A stretch of DNA of 64,000 nucleotides, taken from a virus (lineage: Duplodnaviria; Caudoviricetes). Below the pieces are notes generated by a model, which searched no databases, was not told where the DNA came from, and worked only from the letters and a program-made list of their open reading frames with translations. Below are positions 1,130 through 60,448 of this stretch, piece by piece. The position numbers and the translations under genes were made by a program. Numbering within the stretch: the stretch's first letter is position 1; every line of letters begins with the position of its first letter. The stretch spans positions 1 through 64,000 of IMG/VR virus record IMGVR_UViG_3300033073_001153; one strand, given 5' to 3'.

Positions 1130-1768
1130 ATGAGCAATAAATCTCTATTCGAAAAGTTGTTTGAAGAAGTAATGCAAGATGATGCAGAAGCACTAGGTCT
1201 ACCTTCAAGTGAAGGTGGTGAAGGCGGTGGCGAAATGGGTGGCGAAGATTTTGGTTCTGAAGAAGGTGGCGATGATGTCACACTTACTTTAGATCGTGCT
1301 ACCGCTCAAAAGCTTCATGATCTACTAGGTGATATTCTCGGTGGTGGCGAAGAAGAAGGAATGGGAGAAGATGAAATTGGTGGAGAAAGTGAAATGGAAG
1401 AAGGTGGTGAAGGTATGGAAGACGAAGCTGCTGAAGAATCTGAAGATGAAGACGAAGATGCAGAAGAATCCGAAGACGAAGATGAAGATTCTGAAGAAAT
1501 GTTCGAAGCTCCTCAGTCTAAGTATGAAAAGTTTGAAACAAAGAGCAAAGCAGACAAGCTACAAAGCAAGTCAAATTCTCGTGTACAAGGCGCACTAGCA
1601 AACAAGACCAGTGCTCATGGTAAGGCAGAAAAGACTGCACAAACTCCCGGCACTGCTCATTACATGCCATTTAATAAGAAGGTTGATCAAGCCAAACCCG
1701 GTGGTTCTATTAAGGTTAATAATCCTAAGTACAATCCAAACGGTCAGGGTGATTCTATTTTCGGTTAA
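1130..1768 (+). CDS. Highly acidic (E/D/G-rich) late protein, possible head-internal/core protein
   Basis: ORF track 1124..1768. TAAATA at 1119-1124 favours the ATG at 1130. N-terminus LFEKLFEE, long acidic tract, basic C-terminus. Confidence 0.7.
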   Translation: MSNKSLFEKLFEEVMQDDAEALGLPSSEGGEGGGEMGGEDFGSEEGGDDVTLTLDRATAQKLHDLLGDILGGGEEEGMGEDEIGGESEMEEGGEGMEDEAAEESEDEDEDAEESEDEDEDSEEMFEAPQSKYEKFETKSKADKLQSKSNSRVQGALANKTSAHGKAEKTAQTPGTAHYMPFNKKVDQAKPGGSIKVNNPKYNPNGQGDSIFG

Positions 1769-1790
1769 TAAACTAAAAAATTTAAAAAAT

Positions 1791-1825
1791 AAAAAGGACG
1801 GATTCTTCGGAGTCCGTCCTTTTTT
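1791..1825 (+). terminator. Intrinsic terminator with a cUUCGg tetraloop (A/T tracts on both sides)
   Basis: aaaaaggacggattc-ttcg-gagtccgtcctttttt. Confidence 0.9.
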
Positions 1826-1839
1826 GCTAAATAATTAAC

Positions 1840-2163
1840 ATGGTATCTTTTAAAGAATACTTTTATGAGAACGTAAATCCTCATCACATGAGAGATTCTC
1901 GTTTATATACTAGAACTGGTGCTCCAAGAAATGGAAAAGATACCGGAGTTAATATGGTAGCCGGAAGATACAGTAAAAATGATCCTAATTACGATCAAAA
2001 TAAGTCACAAAAAACTGGACCAATATCAAATAGAGAAGCTTTTGATTTAATTAGTAAACATGGATTAAATCCACAAGAATTACGTCAACCAAAACAACTA
2101 GGTAAACGTCCATATACTTTGCAAAAGCTTCCTACTGGTTTTGTAATTAATAAAATTTCTTAA
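1840..2163 (+). CDS. Hypothetical late protein with a capsid-targeting-like N-terminus
   Basis: ORF starts MVSFKEYFYE; TAAATA at 1828-1833. Confidence 0.7.
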   Translation: MVSFKEYFYENVNPHHMRDSRLYTRTGAPRNGKDTGVNMVAGRYSKNDPNYDQNKSQKTGPISNREAFDLISKHGLNPQELRQPKQLGKRPYTLQKLPTGFVINKIS

Positions 2164-2165
2164 TT

Positions 2166-3140
2166 ATGGCTTGCTACTACACTGGTGCTGGTAATAATAG
2201 TATGTGCTACGAGTTATATGATAAAACTCGACTAGCACCAGATATTTCAGTTTTTGCTAATGTAGCAGAAGAAATGGTTAATAGCATGGGGCAGAAGGTG
2301 AATTATTGGGTTAATACTACTACACCGTTATCAGCGGATGTAATATACGGAGAACAGCCCACGAGTGTGTATGTGGGACCGTTTACATTAAAAATGTATA
2401 TAAATTTAAATGAATCTTCATTATCACAGAGTAAATTTGGATTTAATGCGGGAGATGATGCCACTGGTTATATGGCATACAATAATTTTTTGCGTGTAAT
2501 GTCTAGTGCTGAAATTTATACCGAATTAAATCAGTCTGTGGAACCAAAAGCAGGGGATGTTTTTGAAATGTACGAATATGGAAGTGATCGAGTTAATGGA
2601 AGAACTGGTAGATATTTTCAAATAACACAAAAAAGAGATCAAAATGTTGGGGAACAAATGAACATTCTTGGTGGACATTATGGTTGGGAAGTAAAAGCCA
2701 TGAGAATGGAATACAGTTGGGAACCATGTTTACCACAAGAAGGTGTTAATGAGCAAATGACATTAGATACGTTCTACGGAAAACTTACAAGTACTATATC
2801 TTGTGAAGTTTCTTCTGCACCTAAGTCTTATGAAGGTTCTGTAGATGAAGAAAGTAAGAAATTTGTATTTAACATGAATGTGAATGATACAGACATGTAT
2901 GGTACATATGATCTAGCAACAGGAAATAACATTATTATTCCAGTAGCACCTTCTCATACATTTGATTTACCAGTTACTGAGATTGAATTAACTCCAGAAA
3001 CTTTAGGAAATATTATTAATGCAAATATTGCAGATGATATTCAAACTATTGAGAATGAAATTCAACAACTAGAAGACTTTATTGACAAAGAAAATTATAT
3101 TCGTTACGATATTGATGCAGTAGATGGTGGAGATTTCTAA
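2166..3140 (+). CDS. gp14: Neck/head-completion protein (T4 gp14-like)
   Basis: DVIYGEQP, SKFGFNAGDD and EPKAGDVFEM...YFQIT resemble gp14 motifs; structural gene context. Confidence 0.7.
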   Translation: MACYYTGAGNNSMCYELYDKTRLAPDISVFANVAEEMVNSMGQKVNYWVNTTTPLSADVIYGEQPTSVYVGPFTLKMYINLNESSLSQSKFGFNAGDDATGYMAYNNFLRVMSSAEIYTELNQSVEPKAGDVFEMYEYGSDRVNGRTGRYFQITQKRDQNVGEQMNILGGHYGWEVKAMRMEYSWEPCLPQEGVNEQMTLDTFYGKLTSTISCEVSSAPKSYEGSVDEESKKFVFNMNVNDTDMYGTYDLATGNNIIIPVAPSHTFDLPVTEIELTPETLGNIINANIADDIQTIENEIQQLEDFIDKENYIRYDIDAVDGGDF

Positions 3141-4225
3141 ACAACTGATAACGTAGCAAATGTACTTGTCAATGTGCCGTATAAATTAGAAGCAATACAC
3201 GCATATCTACCAGAATTTGAATTTTGTATATTAGATAAAATATAATTCTTATAAATTTCCCCATTTATATTTCCTTCATTTTCTTTTATCCATTGATATG
3301 AAATAGGATTTGTTCCTGTAGCATTAGAAGTAAATGTAAAAGATTCTCCAATAAATACAATTCCTGAAACTGGATTTAATATAAATTCTGGTGGTTTATT
3401 TATATAAAACAGCACTTTGTTGCTTGTTATAGATCCTACAACATTAGATAATATACAATTATAATTTCCTTCATCATTATTTTGTACATTATTAATTTCT
3501 AATTTAACATATCCATCATTTGTTACACTTAATGATCCGTAATTTGTATTATCTTTTCTCCATTGAGCACTGATTGGAGAAGTTCCCACGCAACTTAAAT
3601 TAAGTGTTATGTTATCTCCGATATTTGAAGAAGTATCAACTGGTTGAGTTTTTATAATTATAGAATCATTCACTTTCAAACTAGCAGAAACGCTTGTTAT
3701 AGATGTCAATAGATTAGAAACTACACAAAAATAAATACCTTCTTCATTTTTTGTTATAGAATTAATGTAAATTATGTCAGTATTAGCAGGATATAATAAA
3801 TAATTTTTGTACCATTTATATGTTACTGGAGAAGATGTAGATACGGACAATGAAAAGAATATATTAGAATTTGTATTAGCTTCTACTGAATAAGGTTGAA
3901 ATACAAAACTTAAACTGTCTACAACAGTTAATTTAACTATATTACTTTGTATAGAATATCCATTATTACTAACTTCGCAGTAATATTCCGCATCATCGGA
4001 TAATTGTAAATTTGTTAAATTTAATTCATTACTAGTTAATCCAGTCAAAGAAGAACTATTTTTATACCATTGATAATTTAAAGGCTTACTTCCTTTAACA
4101 GAAATAAAAAAATTATAATTATCTCCAACATTTTTTGTTGCACTTAATGGTTGTGTAATAATGGTAGGAGGCACATATGATATAATATGTGTATGTTTTT
4201 TAAAACTACCATTTTTAATGAACAT
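3137..4225 (-). CDS. Protein with four tandem immunoglobulin (I-set-like) domains, probable virion decoration/adhesin
   Basis: Four units of the form TQP...G..P.sYQW.K...L.i.n.q..d.G.Y.C.vSN..gs.tS. Confidence 0.85.
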   Translation of the reverse strand: MFIKNGSFKKHTHIISYVPPTIITQPLSATKNVGDNYNFFISVKGSKPLNYQWYKNSSSLTGLTSNELNLTNLQLSDDAEYYCEVSNNGYSIQSNIVKLTVVDSLSFVFQPYSVEANTNSNIFFSLSVSTSSPVTYKWYKNYLLYPANTDIIYINSITKNEEGIYFCVVSNLLTSITSVSASLKVNDSIIIKTQPVDTSSNIGDNITLNLSCVGTSPISAQWRKDNTNYGSLSVTNDGYVKLEINNVQNNDEGNYNCILSNVVGSITSNKVLFYINKPPEFILNPVSGIVFIGESFTFTSNATGTNPISYQWIKENEGNINGEIYKNYILSNIQNSNSGRYACIASNLYGTLTSTFATLSVV

Positions 4226-4228
4226 AAA

Positions 4229-6214: not shown

Positions 6215-6219
6215 TCAAT

Positions 6220-6242
6220 TATTTAGCTATATAACCTAAATA
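6220..6242. promoter_or_regulatory. Back-to-back T4-type late promoters (TAAATA) driving divergent genes
   Basis: Minus-strand TAAATA at 6220-6225 is 5 nt from ATG 6214; plus-strand TAAATA at 6237-6242 is 6 nt from ATG 6249. Confidence 0.8.
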
Positions 6243-6248
6243 ATTAGG

Positions 6249-6959: not shown

Positions 6960-6971
6960 CTAAATAGATTT

Positions 6972-7916: not shown

Positions 7917-7919
7917 TTT

Positions 7920-9874: not shown

Positions 9875-9898
9875 CCTATGATGATACTACAAAATAAT

Positions 9899-10261
9899 TT
9901 AACTTTCAACTGAAAAAATATCTAAAAAATCAGGAATATCTATCAACTTTTCATTTATAAAATCTAATCTTTTGATAGATTTACGAATAGCTACTTTTTC
10001 AGAGTCTTTTACTGATGGATTTTTTAAACATTTGTCGAAATCTTTTCTCAAAGTTATGGTTTTTTCTAAAATTTCGAACAATCTATTTTTAAATTTATCT
10101 ATTTCAAAAGGAAGAACTAAATTGGATGGACTTTTAAATGCATCTGGATTTATAGGTACTGCCATTTGATAAAAAGGATGATCCGTTGCTCCGGGACCAA
10201 TTCCTGAAGTTTGGCGTTCTGCATTCGCCATGACATCTTCTCTTAAATTTTTACGTTTCAC
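9899..10261 (-). CDS. Hypothetical late protein (GTG start)
   Basis: Minus-strand TAAATA at 10268-10273, 6 nt from the start; begins MKRKNLRE. Confidence 0.65.
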   Translation of the reverse strand: MKRKNLREDVMANAERQTSGIGPGATDHPFYQMAVPINPDAFKSPSNLVLPFEIDKFKNRLFEILEKTITLRKDFDKCLKNPSVKDSEKVAIRKSIKRLDFINEKLIDIPDFLDIFSVES

Positions 10262-10295
10262 TAGAATTATTTACCAATTTCGACTAAATAATTTC

Positions 10296-10742
10296 ATGAG
10301 TAGTAATCTTTTTGAAAAAGCATTTGTACATGTTTTACGTGAAGCACCACAACCAGTAGAAACAGATCCCACAGCAAATGTTTCTGATTCTGATGCAATG
10401 GCTCAAACCTTAGATAAAGGAACAGATCCAGCAGATTTTGATAGTGATGCAGGTGCTGCTGCTGATCACATGGCAGCAGCTACAAAAATGCAAGCTGGTA
10501 TGGTTCAGTCATTACAAAATTGGATAAATGAACTTGAAAAATTTTCCAAATTCCTTAATGGAACCGATCCAAATTCTATGCAATCAAAATTAAAAAATTC
10601 TATTCCTGCAACACTTTTTGATAAAATTCGTATTGCAGAAACTAAAAAGATCGCACGTGTCGCAATGGAAGTTACTTCTCTAAATGAAATGCTTAAAGGA
10701 TATTTAGCAACTTCCGATGACAACAAATACAGAGGTGTATAA
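10296..10742 (+). CDS. Hypothetical late protein with a capsid-targeting-like N-terminus
   Basis: Start re-called from 10230 to ATG 10296 (TAAATA at 10285-10290); begins MSSNLFEKAFVHVLREA. Confidence 0.7.
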   Translation: MSSNLFEKAFVHVLREAPQPVETDPTANVSDSDAMAQTLDKGTDPADFDSDAGAAADHMAAATKMQAGMVQSLQNWINELEKFSKFLNGTDPNSMQSKLKNSIPATLFDKIRIAETKKIARVAMEVTSLNEMLKGYLATSDDNKYRGV

Positions 10743-10744
10743 TT

Positions 10745-11728: not shown

Positions 11729-11734
11729 TAGGCG

Positions 11735-13673: not shown

Positions 13674-14139
13674 CGATTTCCAATAAGGATAACATTTTTG
13701 ATAGCTTAATGTCGAGCTTTTTGATACTACTTTCAATAGCAGTTAATTTTTTATCAATTGATAATGCAGTCACACTATTATCAAAATTAAATTCCAACTG
13801 ATTTGGATCAAATATTTGATCTTGTGGTTGACCTTGTGGTTGACCTTGTGGTTGAAGAGTTTGATTTGGAATATTCGTGGGATGAATTTGTTTATGTTGT
13901 GGTTGAACATGCTGAACATGCTGAACATTTCCAATTGGAATTTTACCAGCATTTGGTGTTACAACTTCTTGGAAGACCTTGTTTGCTATATTTTGAAATT
14001 CTTGCTTTTTAGGCATTAATGTATTGTTAGGAGACACTAGTCTGCTATCAAATTGTGAAACTTCTTTATAGGTATGTCCCAAAAAACCAATTAAAGTTTT
14101 TTGTAATTCTTCTGGTGTTAGATCTGATTCGTCGTTCAT
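13645..14139 (-). CDS. Hypothetical protein with a Gln-rich low-complexity linker
   Basis: VQH x3 and QPQG x3; QLEFNFD is a possible clamp/partner-binding motif; coiled-coil C-terminus. Confidence 0.65.
   Translation of the reverse strand: MNDESDLTPEELQKTLIGFLGHTYKEVSQFDSRLVSPNNTLMPKKQEFQNIANKVFQEVVTPNAGKIPIGNVQHVQHVQPQHKQIHPTNIPNQTLQPQGQPQGQPQDQIFDPNQLEFNFDNSVTALSIDKKLTAIESSIKKLDIKLSKMLSLLEIDDLTNLKQE
13821..13855. repeat. 12-nt tandem repeat x3 (encodes QPQG on the minus strand)
   Basis: cttgtggttgac cttgtggttgac cttgtggttga. Confidence 0.85.
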
Positions 14140-16505: not shown

Positions 16506-17246
16506 ATGAGTATTTTAAATCGCATTGGATGGGCAAATCGAGAAATTATAAATGAAGGATTACTTCATAGTGATGGATTAAAACAAAGAATAGCCAATCT
16601 ATTTAAAAGAACTTCTTTAGGAAATTCTCCAACTTATGTAGTTGGTAAAATTGCTGATACTCTCAAAGAAGAATTAGGAGAAGACTATGATATCAATGAA
16701 GTAACTGACGAAGATATCATCAGAATTGCTAATTCCGAATCTATTACAAAAAATAAATTTATTCCCGAATTACGTGATGGAATTGCAAATGCTCGTCAAG
16801 AAGACGAAGGAGAAATGTCTGATGTAATTGATAGCGGTCTTCCTTCTGATTCTTCAGATGATGACGATTTTGAAGATTTTTATGATGATGAAATTGATTT
16901 AGATGATCAACCTTCCGCAGTAATAATTCAAACCACACCAATCAAAACAGAAGACGATGACTTAGAAATGGAATTTTCTGGAGAATCTCAAGAAGACGAA
17001 GAACACGAAGAAGATTCTTCTGAAGAAGATGCAGAAGAAGTTAAAACATGCGGATGCGAAACTCATCAATCCCCTTTTTATGCTGGATATGCAAAAAATA
17101 ACATTAAAAAAGTACATAATCCAAAACAAATAACTAAAGAAAACGTAAAACTATCAAAAGAACAAGTCAATAAATTATTACACGAAAATTATATTAAAAC
17201 ACGCCAGCATAAATTTAAACAAGAAGAAAAATATAGAAATTATTAA
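16506..17246 (+). CDS. Acidic late protein, possible head-internal protein
   Basis: TAAATA at 16495-16500; IINE|G, ITKE and LLHE gp21-like sites; D/E-rich middle. Confidence 0.65.
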   Translation: MSILNRIGWANREIINEGLLHSDGLKQRIANLFKRTSLGNSPTYVVGKIADTLKEELGEDYDINEVTDEDIIRIANSESITKNKFIPELRDGIANARQEDEGEMSDVIDSGLPSDSSDDDDFEDFYDDEIDLDDQPSAVIIQTTPIKTEDDDLEMEFSGESQEDEEHEEDSSEEDAEEVKTCGCETHQSPFYAGYAKNNIKKVHNPKQITKENVKLSKEQVNKLLHENYIKTRQHKFKQEEKYRNY

Positions 17247-30034: not shown

Positions 30035-30211
30035 ATGGATCGATTTGATAAATTATTTCATAAATTAATGGAAACCATGACGGCTGGAGGAGCTGGAAGT
30101 ATTTTAAATCCAGATCAAAATAAAGAATATGCTGCTGGAGATAATAGGATTCCATTTATTCTAGGTAAAAAGAAAAAACCACAAAAAAGAAATCTAAAAA
30201 ATACATTATAA
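30035..30211 (+). CDS. Small late protein (58 aa), below the ORF-track length cutoff
   Basis: MDRFDKLFHKLMETMTAGGAGSILNPDQNKEYAAGDNRIPFILGKKKKPQKRNLKNTL*; TAAATA at 30024-30029, 5 nt before the ATG. Confidence 0.7.
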   Translation: MDRFDKLFHKLMETMTAGGAGSILNPDQNKEYAAGDNRIPFILGKKKKPQKRNLKNTL

Positions 30212-31226: not shown

Positions 31227-31667
31227 ATGAATTTCAAAAATTTATTAGAAAAGCATTATACTTTGCTAGAACAGGAAAATCTCCCAAAGGGTCTGGATGT
31301 ACCAGAAAAGCCACAAGCCCCCGTAGAATCTGGAATGGGGGAAGAAGGATTACCCGAACAAGATGATCAGGCAAAGCAAATGCAAGAAATGATTGATAAG
31401 TCACAAAGAAGAGTTTATGATATGATTAATAATATCGTTTCTTTTATTCGTGAAGCTTCGACAGACAAAGAAAAAACACGTTTATCACCAGAATTAGAAA
31501 ATTTTCTTAAAAATTTAGAAGAAGCTTCACTAAATGGATCAGATTATACTTCAAAACTAGCAGAAATGGAAAAAGTGGTGAATTCTAATTTAGGTAAGGG
31601 ATTATATGAACCTGCTTCTGAAATAACAGGTGAAAGTTTCTTTCAAAGTTGGAAAAACGCTAAATAA
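31227..31667 (+). CDS. Hypothetical late protein with a capsid-targeting-like N-terminus
   Basis: TAAATA at 31216-31221; MNFKNLLEKHYTLLE. Confidence 0.7.
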   Translation: MNFKNLLEKHYTLLEQENLPKGLDVPEKPQAPVESGMGEEGLPEQDDQAKQMQEMIDKSQRRVYDMINNIVSFIREASTDKEKTRLSPELENFLKNLEEASLNGSDYTSKLAEMEKVVNSNLGKGLYEPASEITGESFFQSWKNAK

Positions 31668-31671: not shown

Positions 31672-32100
31672 ATGCCACTCAAAAAAGGAAAATCCAAAAA
31701 AACTATTGCAAAGAACATTAAAACTGAAATCAAAGCAGGAAAGCCACAGAAACAAGCAGTGGCTATAGCTTATAGTGTTGCAGGATTAAGCAAAAAGAAA
31801 AAGAAGACTAAAAAGAAGACTAAAAAGAAGACTGTTAAAAAAGAATCTTTCGATTCTGTAGTAAACGATTATTTAAAACTTTTCATATTTGATGAAGCTA
31901 TTGTGCCTCAACAACCAGCTCCTTTATCTCCAGAAGAACAAAAAGCAGCAAATGAGCTAGAAAAGAAGAAACAACTAGAAATTCTAAATTTGAAGAAAGC
32001 AAAGACAGATCCTAAAATGAGAGAAACATTAAAGGCTGGAATGCAACTTGGTAGAATGACCAAACCAACTACTGGATCAACTCCTACTAGTACATTTTAA
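31672..32100 (+). CDS. Basic late protein (MPLKKGKS...QAVAIA family)
   Basis: Start re-called to ATG 31672 (TAAATA at 31661-31666); N-terminal motif common in small phage proteins; KKTK repeats. Confidence 0.7.
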   Translation: MPLKKGKSKKTIAKNIKTEIKAGKPQKQAVAIAYSVAGLSKKKKKTKKKTKKKTVKKESFDSVVNDYLKLFIFDEAIVPQQPAPLSPEEQKAANELEKKKQLEILNLKKAKTDPKMRETLKAGMQLGRMTKPTTGSTPTSTF

Positions 32101-32502
32101 ATGATATCGTTTAGTAGATATTTTTACGAAAGCACTGAAGAATTTTCACAAAGAGAAAAAGTGAAAATTCTTGGTGTTGGTAATTATATTGCTAAAGTAG
32201 ATAGTGGTAATGATGGATATTGTGTTTTACACGGAGATAATATCTCTATAAATGGCGAAGAAGTATCATTTGATACATTTGAAGGTAAAACTATAAAAAA
32301 GCCTTTAATCGATACAATTAAAGTAAACGTAGGGGCTGGAACACACGAAGAACGTCCAGTAGTAGAATTTGATATAGAAATTAAAAAAGAACTTCACAAA
32401 AAAGTAAAATTCTCTATTGGAAATCGAAAAAATAACGATGAGAAAGTTTTAATAGGTTTAAAGTTTTTAAAACCAATTAAAGCAGTGATTGAAATTAAAT
32501 AG
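32101..32502 (+). CDS. Retropepsin-like aspartic peptidase (RimK-associated / putative ATP-dependent zinc protease family)
   Basis: AKVDSGN (D-[TS]-G catalytic motif), LH, ERPVVEFDI, FSIGNR, VLIGLKFL. Confidence 0.8.
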   Translation: MISFSRYFYESTEEFSQREKVKILGVGNYIAKVDSGNDGYCVLHGDNISINGEEVSFDTFEGKTIKKPLIDTIKVNVGAGTHEERPVVEFDIEIKKELHKKVKFSIGNRKNNDEKVLIGLKFLKPIKAVIEIK

Positions 32503-32506: not shown

Positions 32507-33640
32507 ATGAGTAAATTTTCGGATCTTATACAAAAAAAGCACGAAATGCTAAAAGTTACCATGAAGGTAGATCCTGCCGCATGTAAGAATGGAGAAATTA
32601 CTCATTTTCAAGAATACGTAGGATTTGTATTGGCAGAAAAAGAATTCGAAAAAACCTACGAAAAGTTATTAAAAAAATATACATTACAAAATGAAGGGTT
32701 TTTTGATACGGTAAAAGGAGCGGTGAAGACAATGGCAAAAGTTGTAACTCCTATAATAAACAATCCAATAACAAGAAGATTGGCTAAAGATATAACAGAA
32801 CCTTTTACAGATCCAAAATATAATCCATTCGTTGGACACGGAGCTAAACCTGTAGATAAAACAGAAGCAGGTCAAATAATTTCAGAAATAGAATCGGAAT
32901 GGTTAGATATAAATAAAATAATAATATTTGATGCTTCGAAATATGGATATGGTATACATAAAAAATCTTTTAAAGATTTAGCGGCTAAAGATCCAGAATT
33001 GAATAAATGGCTTAATTTTATAAGAAAATCTGTAAAGGAAAAATATTCATATAAAGATTTGACTAATACATTATTAGAAAAAATTAATATAACACCAAAT
33101 CCTAGATTTCAAAGAAATATTCCACAAAGAGTTCCACAAATAGTTCCACAAAAAAATACTCAACAAGTTCCTCAATTAAATTCTAGTAAGCCTCAATCTA
33201 AGTCGCCACAAAAAAAGAAAAAAATATCTAGAATTTCTAGATACGCTCCAAAAATAAAAAAATATATAAATAAAAAAACAAATCAACAGGCAAAAAAACC
33301 AATACAAAAACCAATTATAGATTATGTATCTGTTATAAAAGGAGGTATAAATCAAACTGATTTAAATAGTCAGCTTCCTATAAGGAATATGCAAAACGTA
33401 TATCTCCCTATGATAGAAAAAAAGATAAAAGAAGAAAATGCTAAGAGAAAAGAAATGAGAGAAGATAACTTGAAAATAAACTCTCAAGATGTTTGGAAAA
33501 CTCTAGTACAAAAAGTTGAAACTTTATTTAAAGCGTCCAAAACTTATACAAGTGATGAAAAAATAACATGGACTTTTATGTTAGCGCAACCAAGTAAACC
33601 AATTGTACTTACTTATGATCCAATGAATCAGCCTAGTTAA
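32507..33640 (+). CDS. Hypothetical late protein, probable head-internal protein
   Basis: Start re-called to ATG 32507 (TAAATA at 32496-32501); internal LQNE|G and LLE|K sites. Confidence 0.65.
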   Translation: MSKFSDLIQKKHEMLKVTMKVDPAACKNGEITHFQEYVGFVLAEKEFEKTYEKLLKKYTLQNEGFFDTVKGAVKTMAKVVTPIINNPITRRLAKDITEPFTDPKYNPFVGHGAKPVDKTEAGQIISEIESEWLDINKIIIFDASKYGYGIHKKSFKDLAAKDPELNKWLNFIRKSVKEKYSYKDLTNTLLEKINITPNPRFQRNIPQRVPQIVPQKNTQQVPQLNSSKPQSKSPQKKKKISRISRYAPKIKKYINKKTNQQAKKPIQKPIIDYVSVIKGGINQTDLNSQLPIRNMQNVYLPMIEKKIKEENAKRKEMREDNLKINSQDVWKTLVQKVETLFKASKTYTSDEKITWTFMLAQPSKPIVLTYDPMNQPS

Positions 33641-51224: not shown

Positions 51225-51242
51225 TACAGAGTAAATAGATTC

Positions 51243-54200
51243 ATGGCAGAAATTAATGGATCTACATCCTTTAGACAAGAATTGATGAATTATATTTCAT
51301 CTAAACTTCCGTATTCAGGAATTGATACCACTCAAATGGTTCAAAATTTAAATCCAAAGTATCGTTACTTCGAAGATACTGGAATGAAACGAGCAGAAGT
51401 TCTGTCACGTCATTCGGTTTCGCAAAATTTTGATTTTAATAACGAAACAGTAGGAACTGTATCATCAGATAAAAGATACAGTGAAGTGATGTATGCCAAC
51501 ATCCAAAAGGATAAATTGGCTCGTGTTAAAGATTATCGAATTATGGCAGCTTTCTCAGAAGTTGCAAACGCACTAGATGAAATTTGTGATGAAGTTATTA
51601 ATACAGATTCTCATACAAGTAGTTGTTTAAAATTAAAATACAGAAATATAAATCTTTCGGATTTCCAAAAAGAAACCATCGAAAAAGAGTTTTATAAATA
51701 TACAAATTACTTTGATTTTGAACACAAAGGCTGGAGTTATTTTCGTCAGTTATTAGTAGAAGGAGAGATTTATTGGGAACATATTATTCATAAAGATTAT
51801 GTAGAAGAAGGAGTTTTAGGTGTTGTTCAAGTTCCTACTGAATTAATTGATCCAGTATTTTCTAATGTTCAAAATGTAATGGTTAAAGGATATTTGTATC
51901 GTAAGCCTAAATTTGATCCGAATAATCCATTAAAACAAGTTGGTATTGATTATATCCCAATGGATAAGAATCAAATTACTTATGTACATTCAGATGTATG
52001 GAATGAAAGTAAAACGATGCGTCTTCCATTTTTGGAAAATGCTCGTAGAGCTTATCGTCAGTTGTCGATGATTGAAGATTCGATCATCATTTATCGCTTG
52101 GCTCGTGCTCCAGAACGTTTAGTGTTTAATGTTGACGTTGGTAATATGCCAGCACCAAAAGCAGAAGCATACCTTCGAAAATTAATTACAAATTATTGGT
52201 CTTCTAAAACATATGATCCAGATCAAGCTGGTATTGTACAAAAATTTAAGCCACAATCAATTCTAGATAACTTTTGGTTTGCAAAACGTGCAGGATCAGA
52301 AGGAACAAGTGTAACACAATTGGCTGGGGCATGTTTAGCTATGGATACTAAAGTTCCATTATTGGACGGGAGAACTTTAACTATAAGCGAAATTGAGCAA
52401 GAAATTAAAGAAAATAAGAAGATTTGGGTATACAGCACAAATCCAAAAACGGGTCACGTAGCTCCCGGTTTAGTTACTTGGGCTGGCGTTACTCAAGAAG
52501 AAGCTGAAGTGTATAAACTTACTTTTGATAATGGAAAAGAATTAATTTGTACTCCTGATCACAAATTCCCAATTTTAGGAAAAGGATTTGTAGAAGCAAA
52601 AGATCTAGAAATAGGCGAGAGTATGATACCTTTTTACACTAAGAACGAAAAAATTAGTAAAAAAGCGAATGAATATGAAATGGTATATCAAAATGATACC
52701 AAAACTTGGGAATATACCCACAGAATGGTAGCTAATTTCTTCAAAAATGTTAATGAACATGAGGAAATGACATATTCCGAAAAATATGAGAATCATAAAA
52801 AAACTGTGATTCATCATAAAGATTTCAATCGTTTTAATAATAATCCCGAAAATCTTGCCTATATGAACTTCAAAGATCATATGGCCTATCATATTGGGAA
52901 TGGAGAACATACTAAAATAGTATGGGCGAAGAGAACTGAAGAAGAACGAAGAATTATAGGAGAGAAGCAATCCAATGGAATTAAGGAATATTTCTCTTCA
53001 TTATCTGATCAAGAAAGAGAACACAGAGCAAATATTTCCAGAGAAAATGGAAAATTGGGTCCAATTGCTTTAGGAGAAAAGCTAAAAGATTCTGAATTTA
53101 GAAAAGAATATGGATCAAAGATAAGCAAATCTAATAAAAAAAGATTTGCGGATATGAATCAAGAAGAAAAAAATTCTTATTTTTATAATAGTTATGTAAA
53201 AAACTTACAAAGTGAAAAATATGTAAATAATTTAAAAAAGTTGACAGAAACACAATCTTTGATTTTTGATGATAAAATTTTAAAATTTGTTATTGATCAA
53301 GTTAGTGGAAAAACTACTCACGAAGTAACTAAAGAAGATTTGTGTGATATTATCAACAATAATCCAGAAATTCTTGGTCATTTCTTGAAGTTGAATGAAG
53401 GGAGACATATTAGAAATTGGTGCGGCACTAAGATTTCAGTTACCCATTTTTCACCAATGGTCAAGAGCTTCGGATACAAAACATGGAAACAATTCCGTAA
53501 AGAATGTGAACTATTCAACCATCGTTTAGTTAGTGTTGAAAAACTTCCAAATAAGATTCAAGTAGGTACATTGACGATTGATAACGAAGAAAAATATCAT
53601 GATTATCATACGTTTGCCCTTGATTGTGGGGTATTTACGAAAAATTCGAACCTTGGAGAGCTTAGTGATTTAATGTACTTCGTTAAGAAACTTTATCAAT
53701 CTTTGAAAGTTCCTACTACTCGTTTAGATCCACAAGATGCTTTTCGTGATGGAGCTGACATGCTTCGTGAAGAATTAAAATTTGCACGTTTTATTATTCG
53801 TTTACAAAATATTTTTGCGAGTGGATTAAAGAATGGATTTATTACACATTTACAATTAAAAGGAATGTGGAAAGAATATGAATTAAAAGAAGAGACAATT
53901 CATATTGAATTTAATGTTCCTACAAACTTTTACGAATTGAGAGAAAGTCAAAAGCTAGAACTTAAAGTACAAAACTTTGGTTCGTTAGCATCTAATGAAT
54001 CTATTTCTCCGTCTTTTGCACAAAAGAGATATCTAGGATGGACTGATATTGATATTAAAGCTAATCGTGAATTCTTACGAAAAGATAAAGAATTGCGTTG
54101 GGAGTTGACTCAGATTGAAAATATGGGTCCAAACTGGAAACAAGCCGTAGCTGCTCAAGCAGAAGCAGGAGGTGCCCCCGGTGGTGGAGGAGCACCTCCA

Positions 54201-54365
54201 AGTGGTGGTATGGGAGGAGGAATGGGAGGTGGAGGAGGAATGGGTGGAATGGGAGGAGCACCACCTACACCAGAAGGAGGAGAAGAAGGAGCACCCCCAC
54301 CAGAAGGTGGTACAGAATCTCCACCACCAGCAGAAGGAGCACCGAAAGCAGAACCAGCAGTATAA
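51243..54365 (+). CDS. gp20: Portal protein (T4 gp20-like) interrupted by an intein; Gly/Pro-rich C-terminal tail
   Basis: YRIMA..SEV..ALDEI, MIEDSIIIYRLARAPER.VF.VDVGNMP..KAE.YL, FWF, YFVKKLYQSLKVPTTR, REELKF. Confidence 0.96.
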   Translation: MAEINGSTSFRQELMNYISSKLPYSGIDTTQMVQNLNPKYRYFEDTGMKRAEVLSRHSVSQNFDFNNETVGTVSSDKRYSEVMYANIQKDKLARVKDYRIMAAFSEVANALDEICDEVINTDSHTSSCLKLKYRNINLSDFQKETIEKEFYKYTNYFDFEHKGWSYFRQLLVEGEIYWEHIIHKDYVEEGVLGVVQVPTELIDPVFSNVQNVMVKGYLYRKPKFDPNNPLKQVGIDYIPMDKNQITYVHSDVWNESKTMRLPFLENARRAYRQLSMIEDSIIIYRLARAPERLVFNVDVGNMPAPKAEAYLRKLITNYWSSKTYDPDQAGIVQKFKPQSILDNFWFAKRAGSEGTSVTQLAGACLAMDTKVPLLDGRTLTISEIEQEIKENKKIWVYSTNPKTGHVAPGLVTWAGVTQEEAEVYKLTFDNGKELICTPDHKFPILGKGFVEAKDLEIGESMIPFYTKNEKISKKANEYEMVYQNDTKTWEYTHRMVANFFKNVNEHEEMTYSEKYENHKKTVIHHKDFNRFNNNPENLAYMNFKDHMAYHIGNGEHTKIVWAKRTEEERRIIGEKQSNGIKEYFSSLSDQEREHRANISRENGKLGPIALGEKLKDSEFRKEYGSKISKSNKKRFADMNQEEKNSYFYNSYVKNLQSEKYVNNLKKLTETQSLIFDDKILKFVIDQVSGKTTHEVTKEDLCDIINNNPEILGHFLKLNEGRHIRNWCGTKISVTHFSPMVKSFGYKTWKQFRKECELFNHRLVSVEKLPNKIQVGTLTIDNEEKYHDYHTFALDCGVFTKNSNLGELSDLMYFVKKLYQSLKVPTTRLDPQDAFRDGADMLREELKFARFIIRLQNIFASGLKNGFITHLQLKGMWKEYELKEETIHIEFNVPTNFYELRESQKLELKVQNFGSLASNESISPSFAQKRYLGWTDIDIKANREFLRKDKELRWELTQIENMGPNWKQAVAAQAEAGGAPGGGGAPPSGGMGGGMGGGGGMGGMGGAPPTPEGGEEGAPPPEGGTESPPPAEGAPKAEPAV
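52332..53645 (+). mobile_element. Intein (438 aa) containing an HNH homing endonuclease, in the portal
   Basis: Starts CLAMDTKVPLLDG, block B ICTPDHKF, HNH YTHRMVA...VIHHKDFNRFNNNPENL, ends YHTFALDCGVFTKN, Ser +1; exteins rejoin as TQLAGA-SNLGELSD. Confidence 0.93.
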
Positions 54366-54373
54366 ATAACTAA

Positions 54374-55156
54374 ATGAATGTATCATTTGGTGACTTTTAT
54401 AACAACCCATCATCTGTTGATGCTTTGTATTTTAAAGCATTAAAAGATGATAATATGGATATGGCTGATATGTTGGTAAAACAAGAAGCCAAGAAAAAGG
54501 GTTATTATATTGGTCCAGTATATCATGGAACACAGAAAGCGTTTCACGGACATAAGTTCGATTTAAATATAACTGCAATGGGTAGATATGACCCATCAGC
54601 AGCTAGAGGTGTGATTTCATTTGCATTTGATGAAGAACTTGCACAATCATATGCGGGTATGCTTAGAGAAAAGCCAAGCTTTGGTTTAATATATAAATGC
54701 TATTTAAAATCAGAAAAGATAGCAGATTTTACAGATCCAGCATTTGTAAATTATTATGTACAACAATCGGTCAAATGGCATTTAGAATGGTTGTTGACAA
54801 AAGCAAATAAAAAAGCTTGGAAACTATTAGATAGTGAAGGTAATTTAGATGAAAATGCAGTTAAAGAACGTCTAAGAAAACATGCAATTGAGAGAAGAGA
54901 GTATATAAGTCATGGAGATTGGGGCTTTATGGAAAGTCCCAGTTTGTTGAAAGAAAAGGGTTATGATGCGTCTTTCATGAGAGAAAGCAAAGGACATTCC
55001 CGTGCAGATACAACTAATATATGTGTGTTTAACCCTAATCAAGCAAAACTAGCAGATACCATAACTTACGACAGAAATCCTGAAAATTTAAGAGAAAAGG
55101 TTCCAATACCACTATCTAAACGATTTGATTCTTCTACAGATGATTTCAGATATTAA
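54374..55156 (+). CDS. ADP-ribosyltransferase-like protein of the polyvalent-protein type
   Basis: VYHGT, ISFAFDEELAQSYA, YKCYL, KGYDA, VFNPNQAK, C-terminal IPLSKRFD...DFRY; TAAATA at 54363-54368. Confidence 0.7.
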   Translation: MNVSFGDFYNNPSSVDALYFKALKDDNMDMADMLVKQEAKKKGYYIGPVYHGTQKAFHGHKFDLNITAMGRYDPSAARGVISFAFDEELAQSYAGMLREKPSFGLIYKCYLKSEKIADFTDPAFVNYYVQQSVKWHLEWLLTKANKKAWKLLDSEGNLDENAVKERLRKHAIERREYISHGDWGFMESPSLLKEKGYDASFMRESKGHSRADTTNICVFNPNQAKLADTITYDRNPENLREKVPIPLSKRFDSSTDDFRY

Positions 55157-55180
55157 AATGTAATTTGATTAAATAATTAT

Positions 55181-56356: not shown

Positions 56357-56383
56357 ACGTAATATATTTATTTTCAAATACTT

Positions 56384-56950
56384 ATGAAAACATTATACAA
56401 ATTATTTTTAATACTTTGCTTAATGATTTCTGGTTGTGCATCACCTACGGCAAATTATACGAAATATCAAAAACAAATTGATATGAAACAACAAAAGCTT
56501 CAAGAAGATGCCAAAGATTTCATAGCAACTGCTAAAAGTATTTTAAATAAAACAGATTTAAAAAGATCCGAAATAAAAAGAGCTATATCTATAATTGAAA
56601 AAAGCCAAACACTACTAGGTGCAAAAGTAGACGACGGATCAGAATTCAAAGATTTAACAATAGAAGCACAAGACAAAGCAATAGAAGAAAAATTCGAGGA
56701 AAGTAAAAAAGACTTAGAAAAAATAGAAACACTAGAAGAAAAAGAAGAAGAACTAGTATCTGAAATAGTAAATGATAATGTCAAAAACGAAATTATAAAG
56801 AATTACGAAAGAAAAAAATCATTTAAGTTTTATACAATCCTTTTAACTATTTTAGGAGGAATTGGAACATTAGCTTATTTCTTTCCTACACAAACTATTA
56901 GTATAGGATTAAGAATATTCGGTTTTGTTAAAAACTTAATATTTAAATAA
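56384..56950 (+). CDS. Lipoprotein with a coiled-coil body and C-terminal TM helix (u-spanin-like topology)
   Basis: Signal peptide with lipobox MISG-C18; TM segment FYTILLTILGGIGTLAYFF. Confidence 0.6.
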   Translation: MKTLYKLFLILCLMISGCASPTANYTKYQKQIDMKQQKLQEDAKDFIATAKSILNKTDLKRSEIKRAISIIEKSQTLLGAKVDDGSEFKDLTIEAQDKAIEEKFEESKKDLEKIETLEEKEEELVSEIVNDNVKNEIIKNYERKKSFKFYTILLTILGGIGTLAYFFPTQTISIGLRIFGFVKNLIFK

Positions 56951-58465
56951 TTATTTTATGTAAAAGAAATTTTTAAAGGATTCTAATTTAGTTTCATTTC
57001 TTTTTCTGGAGTTTTCCATAGCTTCTTCTTTATCTTGTTTAGTAAATTTTACTGGATTTTCGTAAGTAAGAAAATTGGCAACAATTCTATATGGTGCTCC
57101 TTCTAATGTAGTTAATTGATTATATGAACAATTAAATTCATATGCAGATTTAGGAGATCCTTCTAGTGTAGTTAATTTATTATAACTACAATCAAAATAG
57201 AATGTTTGCTCCGGCGATCCTTTCAAATTAGTTAAATTATTATAAGAACAAATAAAATTTTCAACCTTTTGTGGTGCTCCTTCTAAAGAAATTAATTGAT
57301 TGCCTCCACAATAAAACCCTCCATCAACTTCTTTTGGGGCTCCTTCTAATGAAGTTAAATTATTATTACTGCAAGTAAAATCTCCTATAATTTTAACATT
57401 TGATAAATTGGGTAATTTATTTAAAAATATATCGTTTAAATATACATCTCCTTTTATAGTGTTGTTTTCTATTCTTTTGATAGTTTCTTCTATATATTTT
57501 TTTTGTTTTGGTAATATTTGCGTATAATATATATTTTTGAATTCTTCGCTATCTTCAAAATAATACTTATCTATTGGATACAAAGAATTCATATTTTTCC
57601 ATTTTACCATTCCTATATTTTCACCGTCATGCTTAACAATATAATCTTTATCTTCTATAAATTCTCTACACGCTTTACGATATCTTTCGCTGACTACTCT
57701 GTTAGCTGGACCTTTTATTTGAACTATTACAAATTCTCCATCTTCAGGATCTTCTTGTAATTCAAATGTTGCTACCGGATGATTGTATTCTTTTGGATCT
57801 CTTAAAGAATATATTTCAAGTTTATGTTTTTTATATTCTTTGAAGTACCTACTTTCCCCTCCTTCTACACTAGTTACTTGGCTTTCTCCTTCTGCTTGTC
57901 CCACACAGTGTCCCATATACATACTCTCCTCACGAAATGACTTATTAGATGTCAATTCCCAAACTGGATATCCATCATAAATTCCAACTACTTTGTAATC
58001 TATTCCTTCTACACTTTGTAGTTTGGCTTTCTTAGCCTTCTCTGCTGATCTAGCCATTTCTTCATCCCATTTTTGAACTTCTTCAAACATTTGTGGAACG
58101 GTAACTTTATACAAAGATTTTAAATAATTATCATCTTTGGTATTCAAAAAATCTATTAAATGACTTAGACGATCTTTATATTCAGAAGTAAAATTATTAA
58201 ATTGAAATATACCTTCTTTCTTAGACCATTCAGGATCAGTTTCTTTTGCTGTATACTTTGAAATAAATGGTGTTTTTATATTATCATCAGCCGGTGACTG
58301 AAACCATTTAATATAAGTTTTCAAAAACCAATTAACTATTTCGGGCTTCTGTACGTTCTTTTCTTTTAATAGTTTTTCTAATTCTAAATGTAAGGGATCT
58401 TTGGAAATCAAATTAGCTTCGTGTAAGCTAGAGTACTTTTCCCAAATTAATACAGAATCATTCAT
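56951..58465 (-). CDS. PcfJ-like domain fused to C-terminal leucine-rich repeats
   Basis: EES.YMGHCVG, IYSLRD, PVATFE, QIKGPAN; five CSYNxLTxLEGxP repeats; late promoter at 58472-58477. Confidence 0.75.
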   Translation of the reverse strand: MNDSVLIWEKYSSLHEANLISKDPLHLELEKLLKEKNVQKPEIVNWFLKTYIKWFQSPADDNIKTPFISKYTAKETDPEWSKKEGIFQFNNFTSEYKDRLSHLIDFLNTKDDNYLKSLYKVTVPQMFEEVQKWDEEMARSAEKAKKAKLQSVEGIDYKVVGIYDGYPVWELTSNKSFREESMYMGHCVGQAEGESQVTSVEGGESRYFKEYKKHKLEIYSLRDPKEYNHPVATFELQEDPEDGEFVIVQIKGPANRVVSERYRKACREFIEDKDYIVKHDGENIGMVKWKNMNSLYPIDKYYFEDSEEFKNIYYTQILPKQKKYIEETIKRIENNTIKGDVYLNDIFLNKLPNLSNVKIIGDFTCSNNNLTSLEGAPKEVDGGFYCGGNQLISLEGAPQKVENFICSYNNLTNLKGSPEQTFYFDCSYNKLTTLEGSPKSAYEFNCSYNQLTTLEGAPYRIVANFLTYENPVKFTKQDKEEAMENSRKRNETKLESFKNFFYIK

Positions 58466-58471
58466 ACAGAT

Positions 58472-58483
58472 TATTTATAAATA
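58472..58483. promoter_or_regulatory. Palindromic double late promoter TATTTA-TAAATA
   Basis: Serves ATG 58465 (minus strand, 6 nt) and GTG 58489 (plus strand, 5 nt). Confidence 0.8.
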
Positions 58484-58488
58484 TCTAT

Positions 58489-58944
58489 GTGCTTTCTTTA
58501 AAAAAAGACGAAAGATTTAAACAGGGATATTTCAAACCTAAAAATCCCGAAAAGTTCATGGGAAAAATTGCCGTGTTTCGTTCGTCTTATGAACGTAAAT
58601 TTCTTCTATGGGCTGATAACAACCCAAACGTAATCGAGTGGGGGTCGGAAAATATCCAAATTCCCTACAAAAGTCCTGTGGATAATAGAATACACAGATA
58701 TTTTGTAGACAATTACATAGTCTTGAAAGAAGGAGATAAAATTAAAAAATATCTCATAGAGATAAAACCGTATAAACAAACCATAGCTCCTGTCTCTTCT
58801 AAAAAGAAAAAGAAAACTACAGTATTATACGAAAATGTTCAATGGGCTGTTAATCAAGCCAAATGGGAAGCTGCTAAAAAATATGCAAACGACAGAGGAG
58901 CCGAATTTATCATATTAACAGAAAAAGAACTGTTTCCAAGTTAA
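58489..58944 (+). CDS. gp4: Head completion nuclease (T4 gp4-like, TnsA-type fold)
   Basis: QGYFKPKNPEKF, FRSSYE, WGSE...IPY.SPVD...HRYFVD, LIEIKP.KQT, VNQAKW.AA. Confidence 0.92.
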   Translation: MLSLKKDERFKQGYFKPKNPEKFMGKIAVFRSSYERKFLLWADNNPNVIEWGSENIQIPYKSPVDNRIHRYFVDNYIVLKEGDKIKKYLIEIKPYKQTIAPVSSKKKKKTTVLYENVQWAVNQAKWEAAKKYANDRGAEFIILTEKELFPS

Positions 58945-58952
58945 ATAAATAT

Positions 58953-59423
58953 GTGAGTTTAATCGATGAATTGTACGATGAAAAATCGGCAAAATTAATC
59001 AAAGTACTTTATTCCGAAGATCCAGAACAATTGTATGTTACCTTTGGTACTAAGATTTTAGAAAAAAGTGATGTTTTTCTAGCTTCTAAACCACTAGATA
59101 TTATTACACTTCTCTGTATGACTGCTAGTTTTGCAGAAAACAAAGAAGAATGTCATGATGTAGCAATTATTGTGTTTAATGGATTAAAACGTAAAGATCC
59201 ACTTCCGTATGTATTAGATGATCGTGGATTTCTTCTAGCAGAAAAAACTCTGGTAGCACTATCATTCTTTAAATCCGCAATGGATAAAAGAGCTAAAAAA
59301 GGGGCACCTCCTTCTGAGTTTTATAGACAGCTATCTAAGCAATTATTTATAAAAAATAATCAAGAAAACATCGCAGAACATCACGAAATGTGGGAAAGCT
59401 TTCTTTCTGAAATTTTTATTTAA
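58953..59423 (+). CDS. Hypothetical late protein
   Basis: GTG start 5 nt after TAAATA at 58942-58947. Confidence 0.65.
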   Translation: MSLIDELYDEKSAKLIKVLYSEDPEQLYVTFGTKILEKSDVFLASKPLDIITLLCMTASFAENKEECHDVAIIVFNGLKRKDPLPYVLDDRGFLLAEKTLVALSFFKSAMDKRAKKGAPPSEFYRQLSKQLFIKNNQENIAEHHEMWESFLSEIFI

Positions 59424-60448
59424 AAAGGAATATCTCTAATAAAGACTGATTCACGAATTGGCTTCTTTCTTATTTTTTTGGCTTTTGGTGCTCCTAATGA
59501 TCTTGCAGGAGATGGAGTAGACATTTCTTGTTCTTTATCCTTAATATGAATTTTTCTTAATTCTGGTTCTGTTATATTTTCGGAACTACTGACTCCATAA
59601 GTTGGATCTGTTCCTTCATAATCATGTCTAGGTTCCAGATCAGTTTTTCCAAAAATAGTATGTTCTCCCTCACCGGGAGCATGAAGAAACACAGCATCTT
59701 CGTAAACATCAGATCCGAATTTTACTTGTTGTCTTGGTTTAGTATGATTATGAAAAAGAAATGGTTTTAATACTAATGCCATTGCTGGATTTGATTTTAA
59801 TGTTTTAATTCTTCCATTTATTTTATCAGAAAATTCTTCATAAGTATCTCTCAATTCTTCTACTTCTCTTTTTCCACCTTCGCTTTTTATTCTTAATACA
59901 GGTTTGGAATTTCTATATACTTGTTGGTATGTATTTTTATCGCTCATAGCTTCATACATAACTATGAGTGCATCTATATATGCTTGTCGAACATTTGAAA
60001 TTTTTTCTGACTTTGCATTCATAGTAAAATATTGAATACAATCTGGAAGTATCCAATAAGGAATTACCAAATCTCCATCTACTTCATTTTGAAAATATTT
60101 GTTATTCGAATATTCTCTCATTAAATTCATTAAATTTTTTTGAGAATTTCTAGGAACTTTAGATCCTTCTCCAGTTAATTGAAGATAATATCCTTCTTCC
60201 ATATCTTCTTGTTTGTATGATTCAAAATTTCTATCTCTAATTTTATCAGATTGTGATGGAGTTAATGCAGTGTTTCTTCCAATAGTTGCTCCATGTGCTT
60301 CTTGAGCATCTGGATTATCTGCTATTGTAGTTTTTTGTCTATAACTTTTACTTCCAATAACATCAGGACGTGGAGTTCCTTTAGGCATCTTTGCTTCATT
60401 TAATGAACGTATGTAGCTTTCAAAAATTTCTACGGAATCTGTAGTCAT
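59420..60448 (-). CDS. Hypothetical late protein with a capsid-targeting-like N-terminus
   Basis: MTTDSVEIFESYIRSLNE|A; minus-strand TAAATA at 60454-60459. Confidence 0.7.
   Translation of the reverse strand: MTTDSVEIFESYIRSLNEAKMPKGTPRPDVIGSKSYRQKTTIADNPDAQEAHGATIGRNTALTPSQSDKIRDRNFESYKQEDMEEGYYLQLTGEGSKVPRNSQKNLMNLMREYSNNKYFQNEVDGDLVIPYWILPDCIQYFTMNAKSEKISNVRQAYIDALIVMYEAMSDKNTYQQVYRNSKPVLRIKSEGGKREVEELRDTYEEFSDKINGRIKTLKSNPAMALVLKPFLFHNHTKPRQQVKFGSDVYEDAVFLHAPGEGEHTIFGKTDLEPRHDYEGTDPTYGVSSSENITEPELRKIHIKDKEQEMSTPSPARSLGAPKAKKIRKKPIRESVFIRDIPF

Follow-up and report, generated by a model that had tools for sequence, protein, structure and literature searches.

The sequence analysed here, termed the window, is the first 64 kb (64,000 nucleotides, nt) of IMG/VR record IMGVR_UViG_3300033073_001153, a single-contig record of an uncultured T4-like phage with 242,607 bp and 31% G+C that is referred to as a whole as the genome. 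The window carries a T4-type head module, which consists of a portal gene with an intein, a protease gene of the Peptidase_S77 family, two core or scaffold genes and gp23. It also carries a set of late open reading frames (ORFs) whose predicted proteins begin with short recurrent peptide tags. Genome-wide, about 35 otherwise unrelated late proteins start with one of three such tags, and 11 of these are found in the window. The tags are considered here as candidate capsid-targeting sequences (CTSs) of the T4 type. The closest cultured phages are cyanophages, with identities of ~33% for gp23 and ~41% for gp21, and 339 uncultured relatives of the S77 protease are found in IMG/VR. ORFs are named by the position of their start; coordinates are collected in Table 1, and a slash within an amino acid (aa) sequence marks a predicted cut site.

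A first-pass annotation of this DNA had listed ten ORFs as sharing one N-terminal motif, an amphipathic helix that usually ends in a protease-type site. All ten ORF starts exist as written and nine of them fall in tag families. However, the tags are three recurrent families found throughout the genome and not one motif, and ORF 16506 is not a member. Family A has the form M-N-D-x-x-[LIM]-I-W-E-x-Y (core D-x-x-[LIM]-I-[WF]-E-x-Y) and is represented in the window by 58465 and, as a W-to-F variant, by 60448, both on the minus strand. Family B, summarized as M-K-F-D-E-L-V-x-K-L-L-E, takes the form M-[KR]-F-D-[ED]-L-[VI]-x-x-[LI]-L-E together with looser forms, F-[DEN]-[DEK]-L-[VIL]-x-x-L-L-E, and is found at 30035, 1130 and 31227; 10296 and 32507 are only marginal B members. 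Family C, M-x-[ST]-F-x-x-[YF]-[FY]-x-E, is found at 1840, 32101 and 54374. The amphipathic helix does not hold up as a shared hallmark: the hydrophobic moment is 0.52 in tagged and 0.45 in untagged late proteins (p = 0.07), which does not distinguish the two. Three further motifs had been cited at internal or C-terminal positions, and here the C-terminal motif at 56951 is real but those at 31846 and 32642 score below 7 bits and were rejected.

The tags occur beyond chance expectation. In a six-frame translation of the whole genome (208,798 residues) the family A core occurs 11 times, always at ORF residue 2 and nowhere else, and the strict family B core occurs five times, likewise always directly after the initiator Met. 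The loose regular expression of the first-pass annotation matches 15 of 87 late N-termini (17%) compared with 12 of 253 other N-termini (4.7%, p = 7.5e-4) and 55 of 2781 internal windows (2.0%, p = 9e-10). A position-specific scoring matrix (PSSM) for the B tag was trained only on sequences outside the window, extracted by regular expression, and was set against a background of 61,721 positions. ORF 30035 scores 16.7 bits and exceeds all background positions, 1130 reaches p ~2e-4, and 10296 and 32507 score ~4 bits (p ~0.006); 31227 is not recovered by this canonical B matrix. A [LIVMFY]-x-E motif within residues 6–20 is present in 32 of 34 tagged and 18 of 59 untagged late proteins (p = 9e-10), a comparison that is partly circular for family A, and in 20 of the 32 the tag Glu is followed by A, S, T or G.

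Beyond residue 20 the payloads are unrelated, and the sole match in an all-against-all BLASTP comparison is between 58465 and the ORF at genome position 136054. The conserved tag residues use synonymous codons freely, with variable third positions, and no conservation is seen in the DNA ahead of the promoter. The synonymous variation indicates that the peptide itself is what is conserved. The observation made in the first-pass annotation is therefore confirmed as real, significant and genome-wide; its interpretation is partly supported, as set out below.

Table 1. Tagged ORFs, head-module genes and one non-member in the window
Position	Strand	Feature	Remarks
1130–1768	+	B-tagged ORF, 212 aa, M-S-N-K-S-L-F-E-K-L-F-E/E	TAAATA-N5-ATG promoter; PSSM 13.9 bits
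1840–2163	+	C-tagged ORF, 107 aa, M-V-S-F-K-E-Y-F-Y-E/N	Basic payload, isoelectric point (pI) 10.2
10296–10742	+	Marginal B-like tag, acidic 148 aa, M-S-S-N-L-F-E-K-A-F-V-H-V-L-R-E/A	PSSM 4.1 bits
30035–30211	+	B-tagged ORF, 58 aa, M-D-R-F-D-K-L-F-H-K-L-M-E/T	Small basic payload, pI 10.2
31227–31667	+	B-variant tag, M-N-F-K-N-L-L-E-K-H-Y-T-L-L-E/Q	Payload acidic, cut-site-rich
32101–32502	+	C-tagged ORF, 133 aa, M-I-S-F-S-R-Y-F-Y-E/S	Retropepsin-like PF05618, Pfam E = 2.3e-6
32507–33640	+	Marginal B-like start, basic 377 aa, M-S-K-F-S-D-L-I-Q-K-K-H-E-M-L-K	PSSM 3.9 bits
54374–55156	+	C tag without Glu, M-N-V-S-F-G-D-F-Y-N-N, on predicted ART-PolyVal ADP-ribosyltransferase	Directly after portal gene
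56951–58465	-	A-tagged ORF, 504 aa, M-N-D-S-V-L-I-W-E/K-Y-S-S-L-H-E/A	PcfJ-like domain
56954–56989	-	C-tag remnant K-L-E-S-F-K-N-F-F-Y-I-K at C-terminus of 58465 protein	Comparison with 136054 paralog
59420–60448	-	A-variant tag, 342 aa, M-T-T-D-S-V-E-I-F-E/S-Y-I-R-S-L-N-E/A	Divergent from protease gene
51243–54365	+	Portal, T4-type, 1040 aa	Portal_T4, E = 1.3e-90
60512–61183	+	Prohead protease, T4 gp21 type, Peptidase_S77	Pfam E = 6.7e-29; PDB 5JBL E = 6e-15
61192–61833	+	Small head-core protein, position of T4 gp67 or gp68	Position and N-terminal helix conserved in 28 loci
61875–62762	+	Scaffold-like protein, role of T4 gp22	Crowded with protease-type sites
62867–64000	+	Major capsid protein gp23, extends past window end	Pfam Gp23 E = 2.7e-55
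16506–17246	+	Non-member late ORF, acidic, 246 aa	Continuous conserved N-terminal domain

The 1130 payload is very acidic (pI 4.1), low-complexity and rich in Glu, Asp and Gly. Its first 13 residues are identical among orthologs that are only 54% identical overall, and the product is a candidate core or internal protein. Orthologs of 1840 at 34–46% identity retain the C tag. Between these two ORFs, at 1775–1815 on the plus strand, a perfect 12-bp hairpin with a T run behind it abuts the next late promoter; it is one of only two terminator-like hairpins located behind the 34 tagged genes scanned. For 10296, the late promoter favours this start over one at 10230; the ORF has five [LIVM]-x-E sites versus 1.9 expected and shows close orthologs only. 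ORF 30035 is conserved in loci L081 and L082. The 31227 tag has a 14-residue form, M-N-F-x-x-L-L-E-[KR]-x-x-x-L-L-E, in common with the gene at 66837, and the ORF contains ten [LIVM]-x-E sites versus 4.6 expected (z = 3.1). ORF 32101 lacks its own promoter and directly adjoins the stop codon of the preceding gene; its orthologs in L115 and L146 start M-K-S-F-K-E-Y-F-L-E/N. The late ORF at 31672–32100 (plus strand) has a very basic start, K-K-G-K-S-K-K-T-I-A-K-N-I-K-T-E-I-K-A-G-K-P-Q-K-Q-A-V-A-I-A, after which come a poly-Lys/Thr run and an unrelated C-terminal portion. This ORF displays no N-terminal tag, and its promoter lies within the end of the preceding gene. The tag of 32507 ends without a clear [LIVM]-x-E.

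ORF 54374 matches the PF18760 profile with 32.1 bits against a cut-off of 31.2; an AlphaFold2 model from a 6-sequence alignment gives a pLDDT of 58, too poor for a fold search. The tag Glu is replaced by Asn in this ORF, and Glu is present in orthologs P0003, P0004 and L128; orthologs begin M-K-V-S-F-R-N-F-F-F-E and M-I-S-F-L-E-Y-F-E-E. Lacking the tag Glu, this predicted ADP-ribosyltransferase (ART) may be loaded but left uncut at the tag. The 58465 protein is 63% identical to its paralog at 136054. Orthologs of 60448 down to 26% identity keep D-x-x-x-I-F-E-x-Y...[LIV]-x-E/A, and mean pairwise identity is 0.58 in the tag versus 0.37 over the following 15 residues. An ESM Atlas look-up of 60448 gave only scores below 0.8, which are noise.

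ORF 16506, whose start had been put with the others, was rejected as a tagged member: its N-terminus belongs to a domain of about 60 residues, conserved without a break in 61 homologs, in which no tag boundary and no similarity to A, B or C is found. This domain has the form M-S-I-L-N-R-x-G-W-x-N-R...G-N-S-P-T-Y, and the gene is situated within a replication and recombination module. One homolog is labelled 'RNA polymerase subunit delta' by one source. A short ORF at 13803–14012 (plus strand), with a repeated D-L-V-V-D-L-V-V-D-L-V-V start, is on the strand opposite to its neighbours and is probably not a gene.

A search of the ten originally cited proteins against PHROGs gave almost no matches, and most payloads show no family match. 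Domain matches are found for ART-PolyVal (54374), a PcfJ-like domain (58465 and 136054), the retropepsin-like family PF05618 (32101) and an AAA_33 P-loop (112955), with weak SprT-like metallopeptidase matches in 126615 and 233333. ARTs and metallopeptidases have been described as domain classes in proteins that are predicted to enter the cell together with the DNA, T4 Alt being the model for which this is established (PMC5512222), and the payload domains would fit delivered proteins. The payloads of 1840, 30035, 66837, 83122 and 86843 are small and very basic, as are the T4 internal proteins, and those of 1840 and 30035 contain no internal [LIVM]-x-E site. ORFs 1130, 10296 and 31227 are acidic (pI 4.1–4.8), and the last two have [LIVM]-x-E sites at two- to threefold the expected number. 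Judged by composition, 10296, 31227 and perhaps 1130 resemble degradable components of the head core more than they do injected cargo.

The head module supplies a predicted protease and a predicted cut-site rule. In an alignment with the T4 gp21 crystal chain 5JBL, His78 and Ser131 of the S77 protease fall on the two positions occupied by Ala; these are the catalytic His and Ser, mutated in the crystallised protein. The gp23 propeptide is predicted to end at C-L-R-E60/A61, a site already pointed out in the first-pass annotation and present as described, with the Glu codon at 63044–63046. Across 76 relatives the propeptide hardly varies as far as [WY]-C-[LIVM]-x-E/[ASG], past which the sequence is hypervariable, a pattern that cleavage at this position would be expected to give. 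The site is near the T4 site in a pairwise alignment, though not exactly aligned with it. The scaffold-like 61875 contains 21 [LIVM]-x-E sites versus 8.9 expected (z = 5.4), many of them followed by Ala. From the gp23 propeptide ends in the 76 relatives and the 21 scaffold sites, we infer a hydrophobic-x-Glu specificity for the protease.

The N-terminal 22 residues of the protease lie outside the S77 domain and are kept in 77 relatives as M-S-L-R-L-I-V-E/K-P-A-P-x-E-Q-F-E-Y-I-F-E/E. This segment (60512–60580) shows two cut-site motifs, L-I-V-E8 and I-F-E21, and a weakly C-tag-like Q-F-E-Y-I-F-E; it may be the protease's own targeting propeptide. The length of the portal protein is accounted for by an intein with an HNH endonuclease domain at residues ~372–779.

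Genome-wide, the late promoter motif TAAATA is found 5 nt before ATG in 69 cases and 6 nt before it in 25, compared with 4–14 cases at each other spacing. Examples in the window are at 1840, 6214, 6972, 51243 and 60512. This spacing leaves no room for a Shine-Dalgarno sequence, and the late mRNAs are thus probably leaderless. Most tagged genes carry this predicted TAAATA-N5/6-ATG element, which is also found ahead of the portal, protease and sheath genes; the tags at 32101, 86664, 112955 and 80503 occur without it. Terminator-like hairpins are found behind only 2 of 34 tagged genes, a rate equal to that of other genes. The idea of a stand-alone cassette of promoter, tag and payload, as originally proposed, thus holds for promoter and tag only, since the tagged genes have no terminator of their own.

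From one phage to another, orthologous payloads are found behind different tag classes, and homology resumes at the Glu or up to ~5 residues past it. The 129127 payload starts M-R-F-D-E-I-V-K-N-I-L-E/S-T-D-Y-R-G in this genome versus M-K-T-F-K-Q-Y-F-L-E/S-E-D-Y-R-G in L018 and L019. Similarly, the payload of 102196 has an A tag here versus a C tag in L021, that of 66837 a B tag versus a C tag in L051 and L052, and that of 137164 an A tag versus a C tag in L116. Payload content varies between close relatives. A scan of IMG/VR for a late promoter followed by the 10-residue C tag gave 70 matches on 66 contigs, with 23 payload clusters; a control with reversed codon order and equal information content gave one match. 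The commonest C-tagged payload shows no homolog in phage isolates.

Fusions are found at the same junctions. The 136054 paralog (134351–136054, minus strand, locus L099) has the C-terminal sequence S-F-K-Q-F-F-L-E/A followed by a small basic Cys module. This module is a free-standing C-tagged gene of 39 aa in L157, and 58465 in the window keeps a stump only. The 136054 C-terminus has the appearance of cassettes fused in tandem and may be part of a polyprotein cut by the protease. In L128 (3491–4312) the ART is fused via ...L-I-T-E/Y-R-H to a small protein that elsewhere stands alone behind ...L-L-E/Y-R-H. From their sequences, the tandem forms look like polyproteins joined at tag or cut-site junctions. 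The ART homologs (window 55100–55156 and P0001–P0004), including a distant one with a different middle, end in I-P-L-S-K-R-F-D-S-S-T-D-D-[FI]-R-Y; in L128, I-P-L-S-K-R-F is followed by the cut-site-like L-I-T-E/Y-R-H and the second small protein. The common ART C-terminus could be the scar of a fusion, or else a second functional element.

The T4 CTS is MKTYQEFIAE (PMC8442874). Its residues 4 and 7 are important in targeting, its residues 8 and 10 in processing (PMC8442874, PMC9026906), and Asp at position 10 blocks processing with targeting unaffected (PMC9026906). The 10-residue C tags, e.g. M-V-S-F-K-E-Y-F-Y-E and M-K-T-F-K-Q-Y-F-L-E, show F4, Y/F7, F8 and E10 and so match the key positions of the T4 CTS. 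Tags A and B have a layout unlike the T4 CTS, yet they also end in [LI]-x-E. The predictions of a T4-type CTS that can be put to a test at the level of sequence all agree with what is found. The reading we prefer, and regard as reasonably likely, is that the three N-terminal tags are CTSs of the T4 type, and that the phage probably loads many proteins into its capsid in the way T4 loads a few. This was the interpretation of the first-pass annotation. It is partly supported, by the short N-terminal tags, the CTS positions, the S77 protease, the site rule and the tag swaps; the acidic members may be head-core parts and not injected cargo.

Several observations weigh against this preferred reading. 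A [LIVM]-x-E site is common by chance and occurs in 33% of random 22-residue windows. The payloads show no distinct avoidance of internal L-x-E, with an observed/expected ratio of 1.01 and a shortfall relative to L-x-D of z ~ -1.6. The P3 residue in C tags is Phe or Tyr, versus Leu, Ile, Val or Met in gp23 and in the T4 rule, and the ART of the window has no tag Glu. The tags of 66837 and 86843 are less conserved than their payloads, although those of 1130, 1840 and 60448 are more conserved. Only the nearer relatives have the A, B and C tags in their strict forms; complete genomes of relatives at 64–67% gp21 identity are without them and have looser B-like starts. No significant copy of a tag is found in gp21, 61192, 61875, the portal or gp23, and thus no docking partner can be named among the scaffold and core proteins. 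Finally, the nearest cultured phages, at only ~41% gp21 identity, are too distant for a virion proteome to apply.

The acidic members raise the question of whether targeting implies delivery. The tags could direct proteins to the prohead core where most of them serve as assembly parts, i.e. accessory scaffold or core proteins comparable to T4 gp22, gp67 and gp68, which are degraded and expelled, leaving no large effector arsenal. The acidic, low-complexity sequences of 1130, 10296 and 31227 and the two- to threefold enrichment of 10296 and 31227 in [LIVM]-x-E, as in the scaffold 61875, fit this explanation, and all T4 core proteins associate via N-terminal segments (PMC5694885). We nevertheless consider it unlikely for most tagged proteins. 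Among the payloads are many predicted enzymes and small basic proteins (ART-PolyVal, PcfJ, PF05618, AAA_33 and the weakly SprT-like), 1840 and 30035 contain no internal sites, payload content varies among close relatives, and some 35 different, quickly exchanged accessory scaffolds are hard to explain.

The missing docking partner would also fit tags that are recognition peptides for a non-capsid partner, such as a chaperone, a sliding clamp or a modifying enzyme in the manner of ribosomally synthesized and post-translationally modified peptides (RiPPs), where one maturase serves many substrates. The C tag S-F-x-x-Y-F presumably resembles the h-x-x-aromatic-aromatic core of the clamp-binding PIP box. 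However, the radical-SAM domain PF04055 gives no match in the 242-kb genome while 14 of 14 control genomes match. In addition, each of the three tag types terminates in the cutting motif of the head protease that the phage encodes, the tags are exchanged at this site, the C tag matches experimentally defined T4 CTS positions, and the tagged genes have late promoters as structural genes do. A partner outside the capsid is thus quite improbable. An explanation at the level of nucleic acid, with a functionless peptide, draws on the probably leaderless mRNAs with promoters 5–6 nt before ATG, where the first codons might matter for initiation, and on the coincidence of tags with recombination junctions, which could be handles that move genes behind late promoters. 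This we regard as very improbable: 59 untagged late genes with the same promoter arrangement have unrelated N-termini, tags occur without such a promoter (32101, 86664, 112955 and 80503) and inside a protein (136054), synonymous codons are used freely, and the amino acid pattern persists in orthologs at 26–34% identity.

Under the preferred CTS reading, each tagged protein would be made late from its own TAAATA promoter situated 5–6 nt before ATG, and the tag would dock the protein onto the assembling prohead core. After the shell has closed around the core, the gp21-type S77 protease would cut after the tag Glu ([LIVMFY]-x-E, then a small residue) and free the payload inside the head. The small basic payloads (1840, 30035), and the enzymes (54374, 58465, 32101 and 60448) would then stay with the DNA and probably be ejected into the next host, while the acidic, cut-site-rich payloads (10296, 31227, perhaps 1130) would more likely be accessory core proteins and be degraded. 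Docking, cleavage, retention and ejection are inferred steps, whereas the tag families, their position specificity, the unrelated payloads, the tag swaps, the presence of the protease and the site rule in gp23 and the scaffold are seen in the sequence. A tag that is a self-contained module bounded by a cut site would allow payloads to swap tag class and to fuse in tandem in evolution. A bolder proposal is that the three tag classes form an addressing code, each docking to a different prohead-core partner and setting copy number, position or ejection order, with more than 35 effectors shuffled by tag swaps and by chaining into polyproteins that are cut in the head, the protease site being a universal joint, in a combinatorial delivery system far larger than that of T4; this extension is doubtful.

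The resemblance to T4 is close in several respects. In both phages an N-terminal tag of about ten residues is found on otherwise unrelated proteins, predicted to be late ones here, and the C tag has the same length as the T4 CTS, with positions 4 and 7 aromatic, position 8 hydrophobic and position 10 Glu. The S77 proteases are homologous, the [L/I]-x-E rule is also seen in gp23 and the scaffold here, and one payload is a predicted ADP-ribosyltransferase, as Alt is in T4. The differences are that three tag classes (9–16 residues) are present versus one, that about 35 tagged genes are scattered over the genome versus a handful, and that the tag class on the same payload swaps between relatives and tandem tag-payload fusions occur. 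Also, P3 is often Phe or Tyr, and the tags described here are known from sequence. Relative to the T4 CTS principle, what would be new are the three exchangeable tags, the approximately 35 cargo genes and the tandem fusions.

The giant phages phiKZ, 201phi2-1 and SPN3US have propeptide-bearing ejection or inner-body proteins cut by gp21-like proteases at S/A-x-E (PMC5694885, PMC9026906). They are likewise large phages in which a gp21 homolog cuts numerous internal head proteins after Glu (predicted in the present case) and diverged paralogs have conserved N-termini. However, their propeptides are mostly longer than 100 residues, whereas the tags described here are of T4 length with a hydrophobic P3, and the head module is of the classical T4 type. 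A further comparison is with the polyvalent proteins of phages and conjugative elements (Iyer et al., 2017, PMC5512222). Predicted ART and weakly matched metallopeptidase domains are among the payloads here, ART-PolyVal is the Pfam name for an ART family of polyvalent proteins, and some payloads are fused in tandem. But the payloads are mostly separate genes, each with its own short tag and promoter, and not parts of one giant multidomain polypeptide.

The course of the earliest minutes of infection, with evasion of restriction and seizure of the host cell, is decided by the proteins that enter with the phage DNA, and for nearly all uncultured phages these proteins are not known. If the tags are loading signals, sequence alone would suffice to list the proteins injected by an entire clade of freshwater jumbo phages, about 35 per genome, and the majority of the proteins on that list would have no known function. 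The tags would also show how such an arsenal evolves by means of modular tags with the protease site as the joint, and would provide new short tags for packaging foreign proteins in T4-type capsids.

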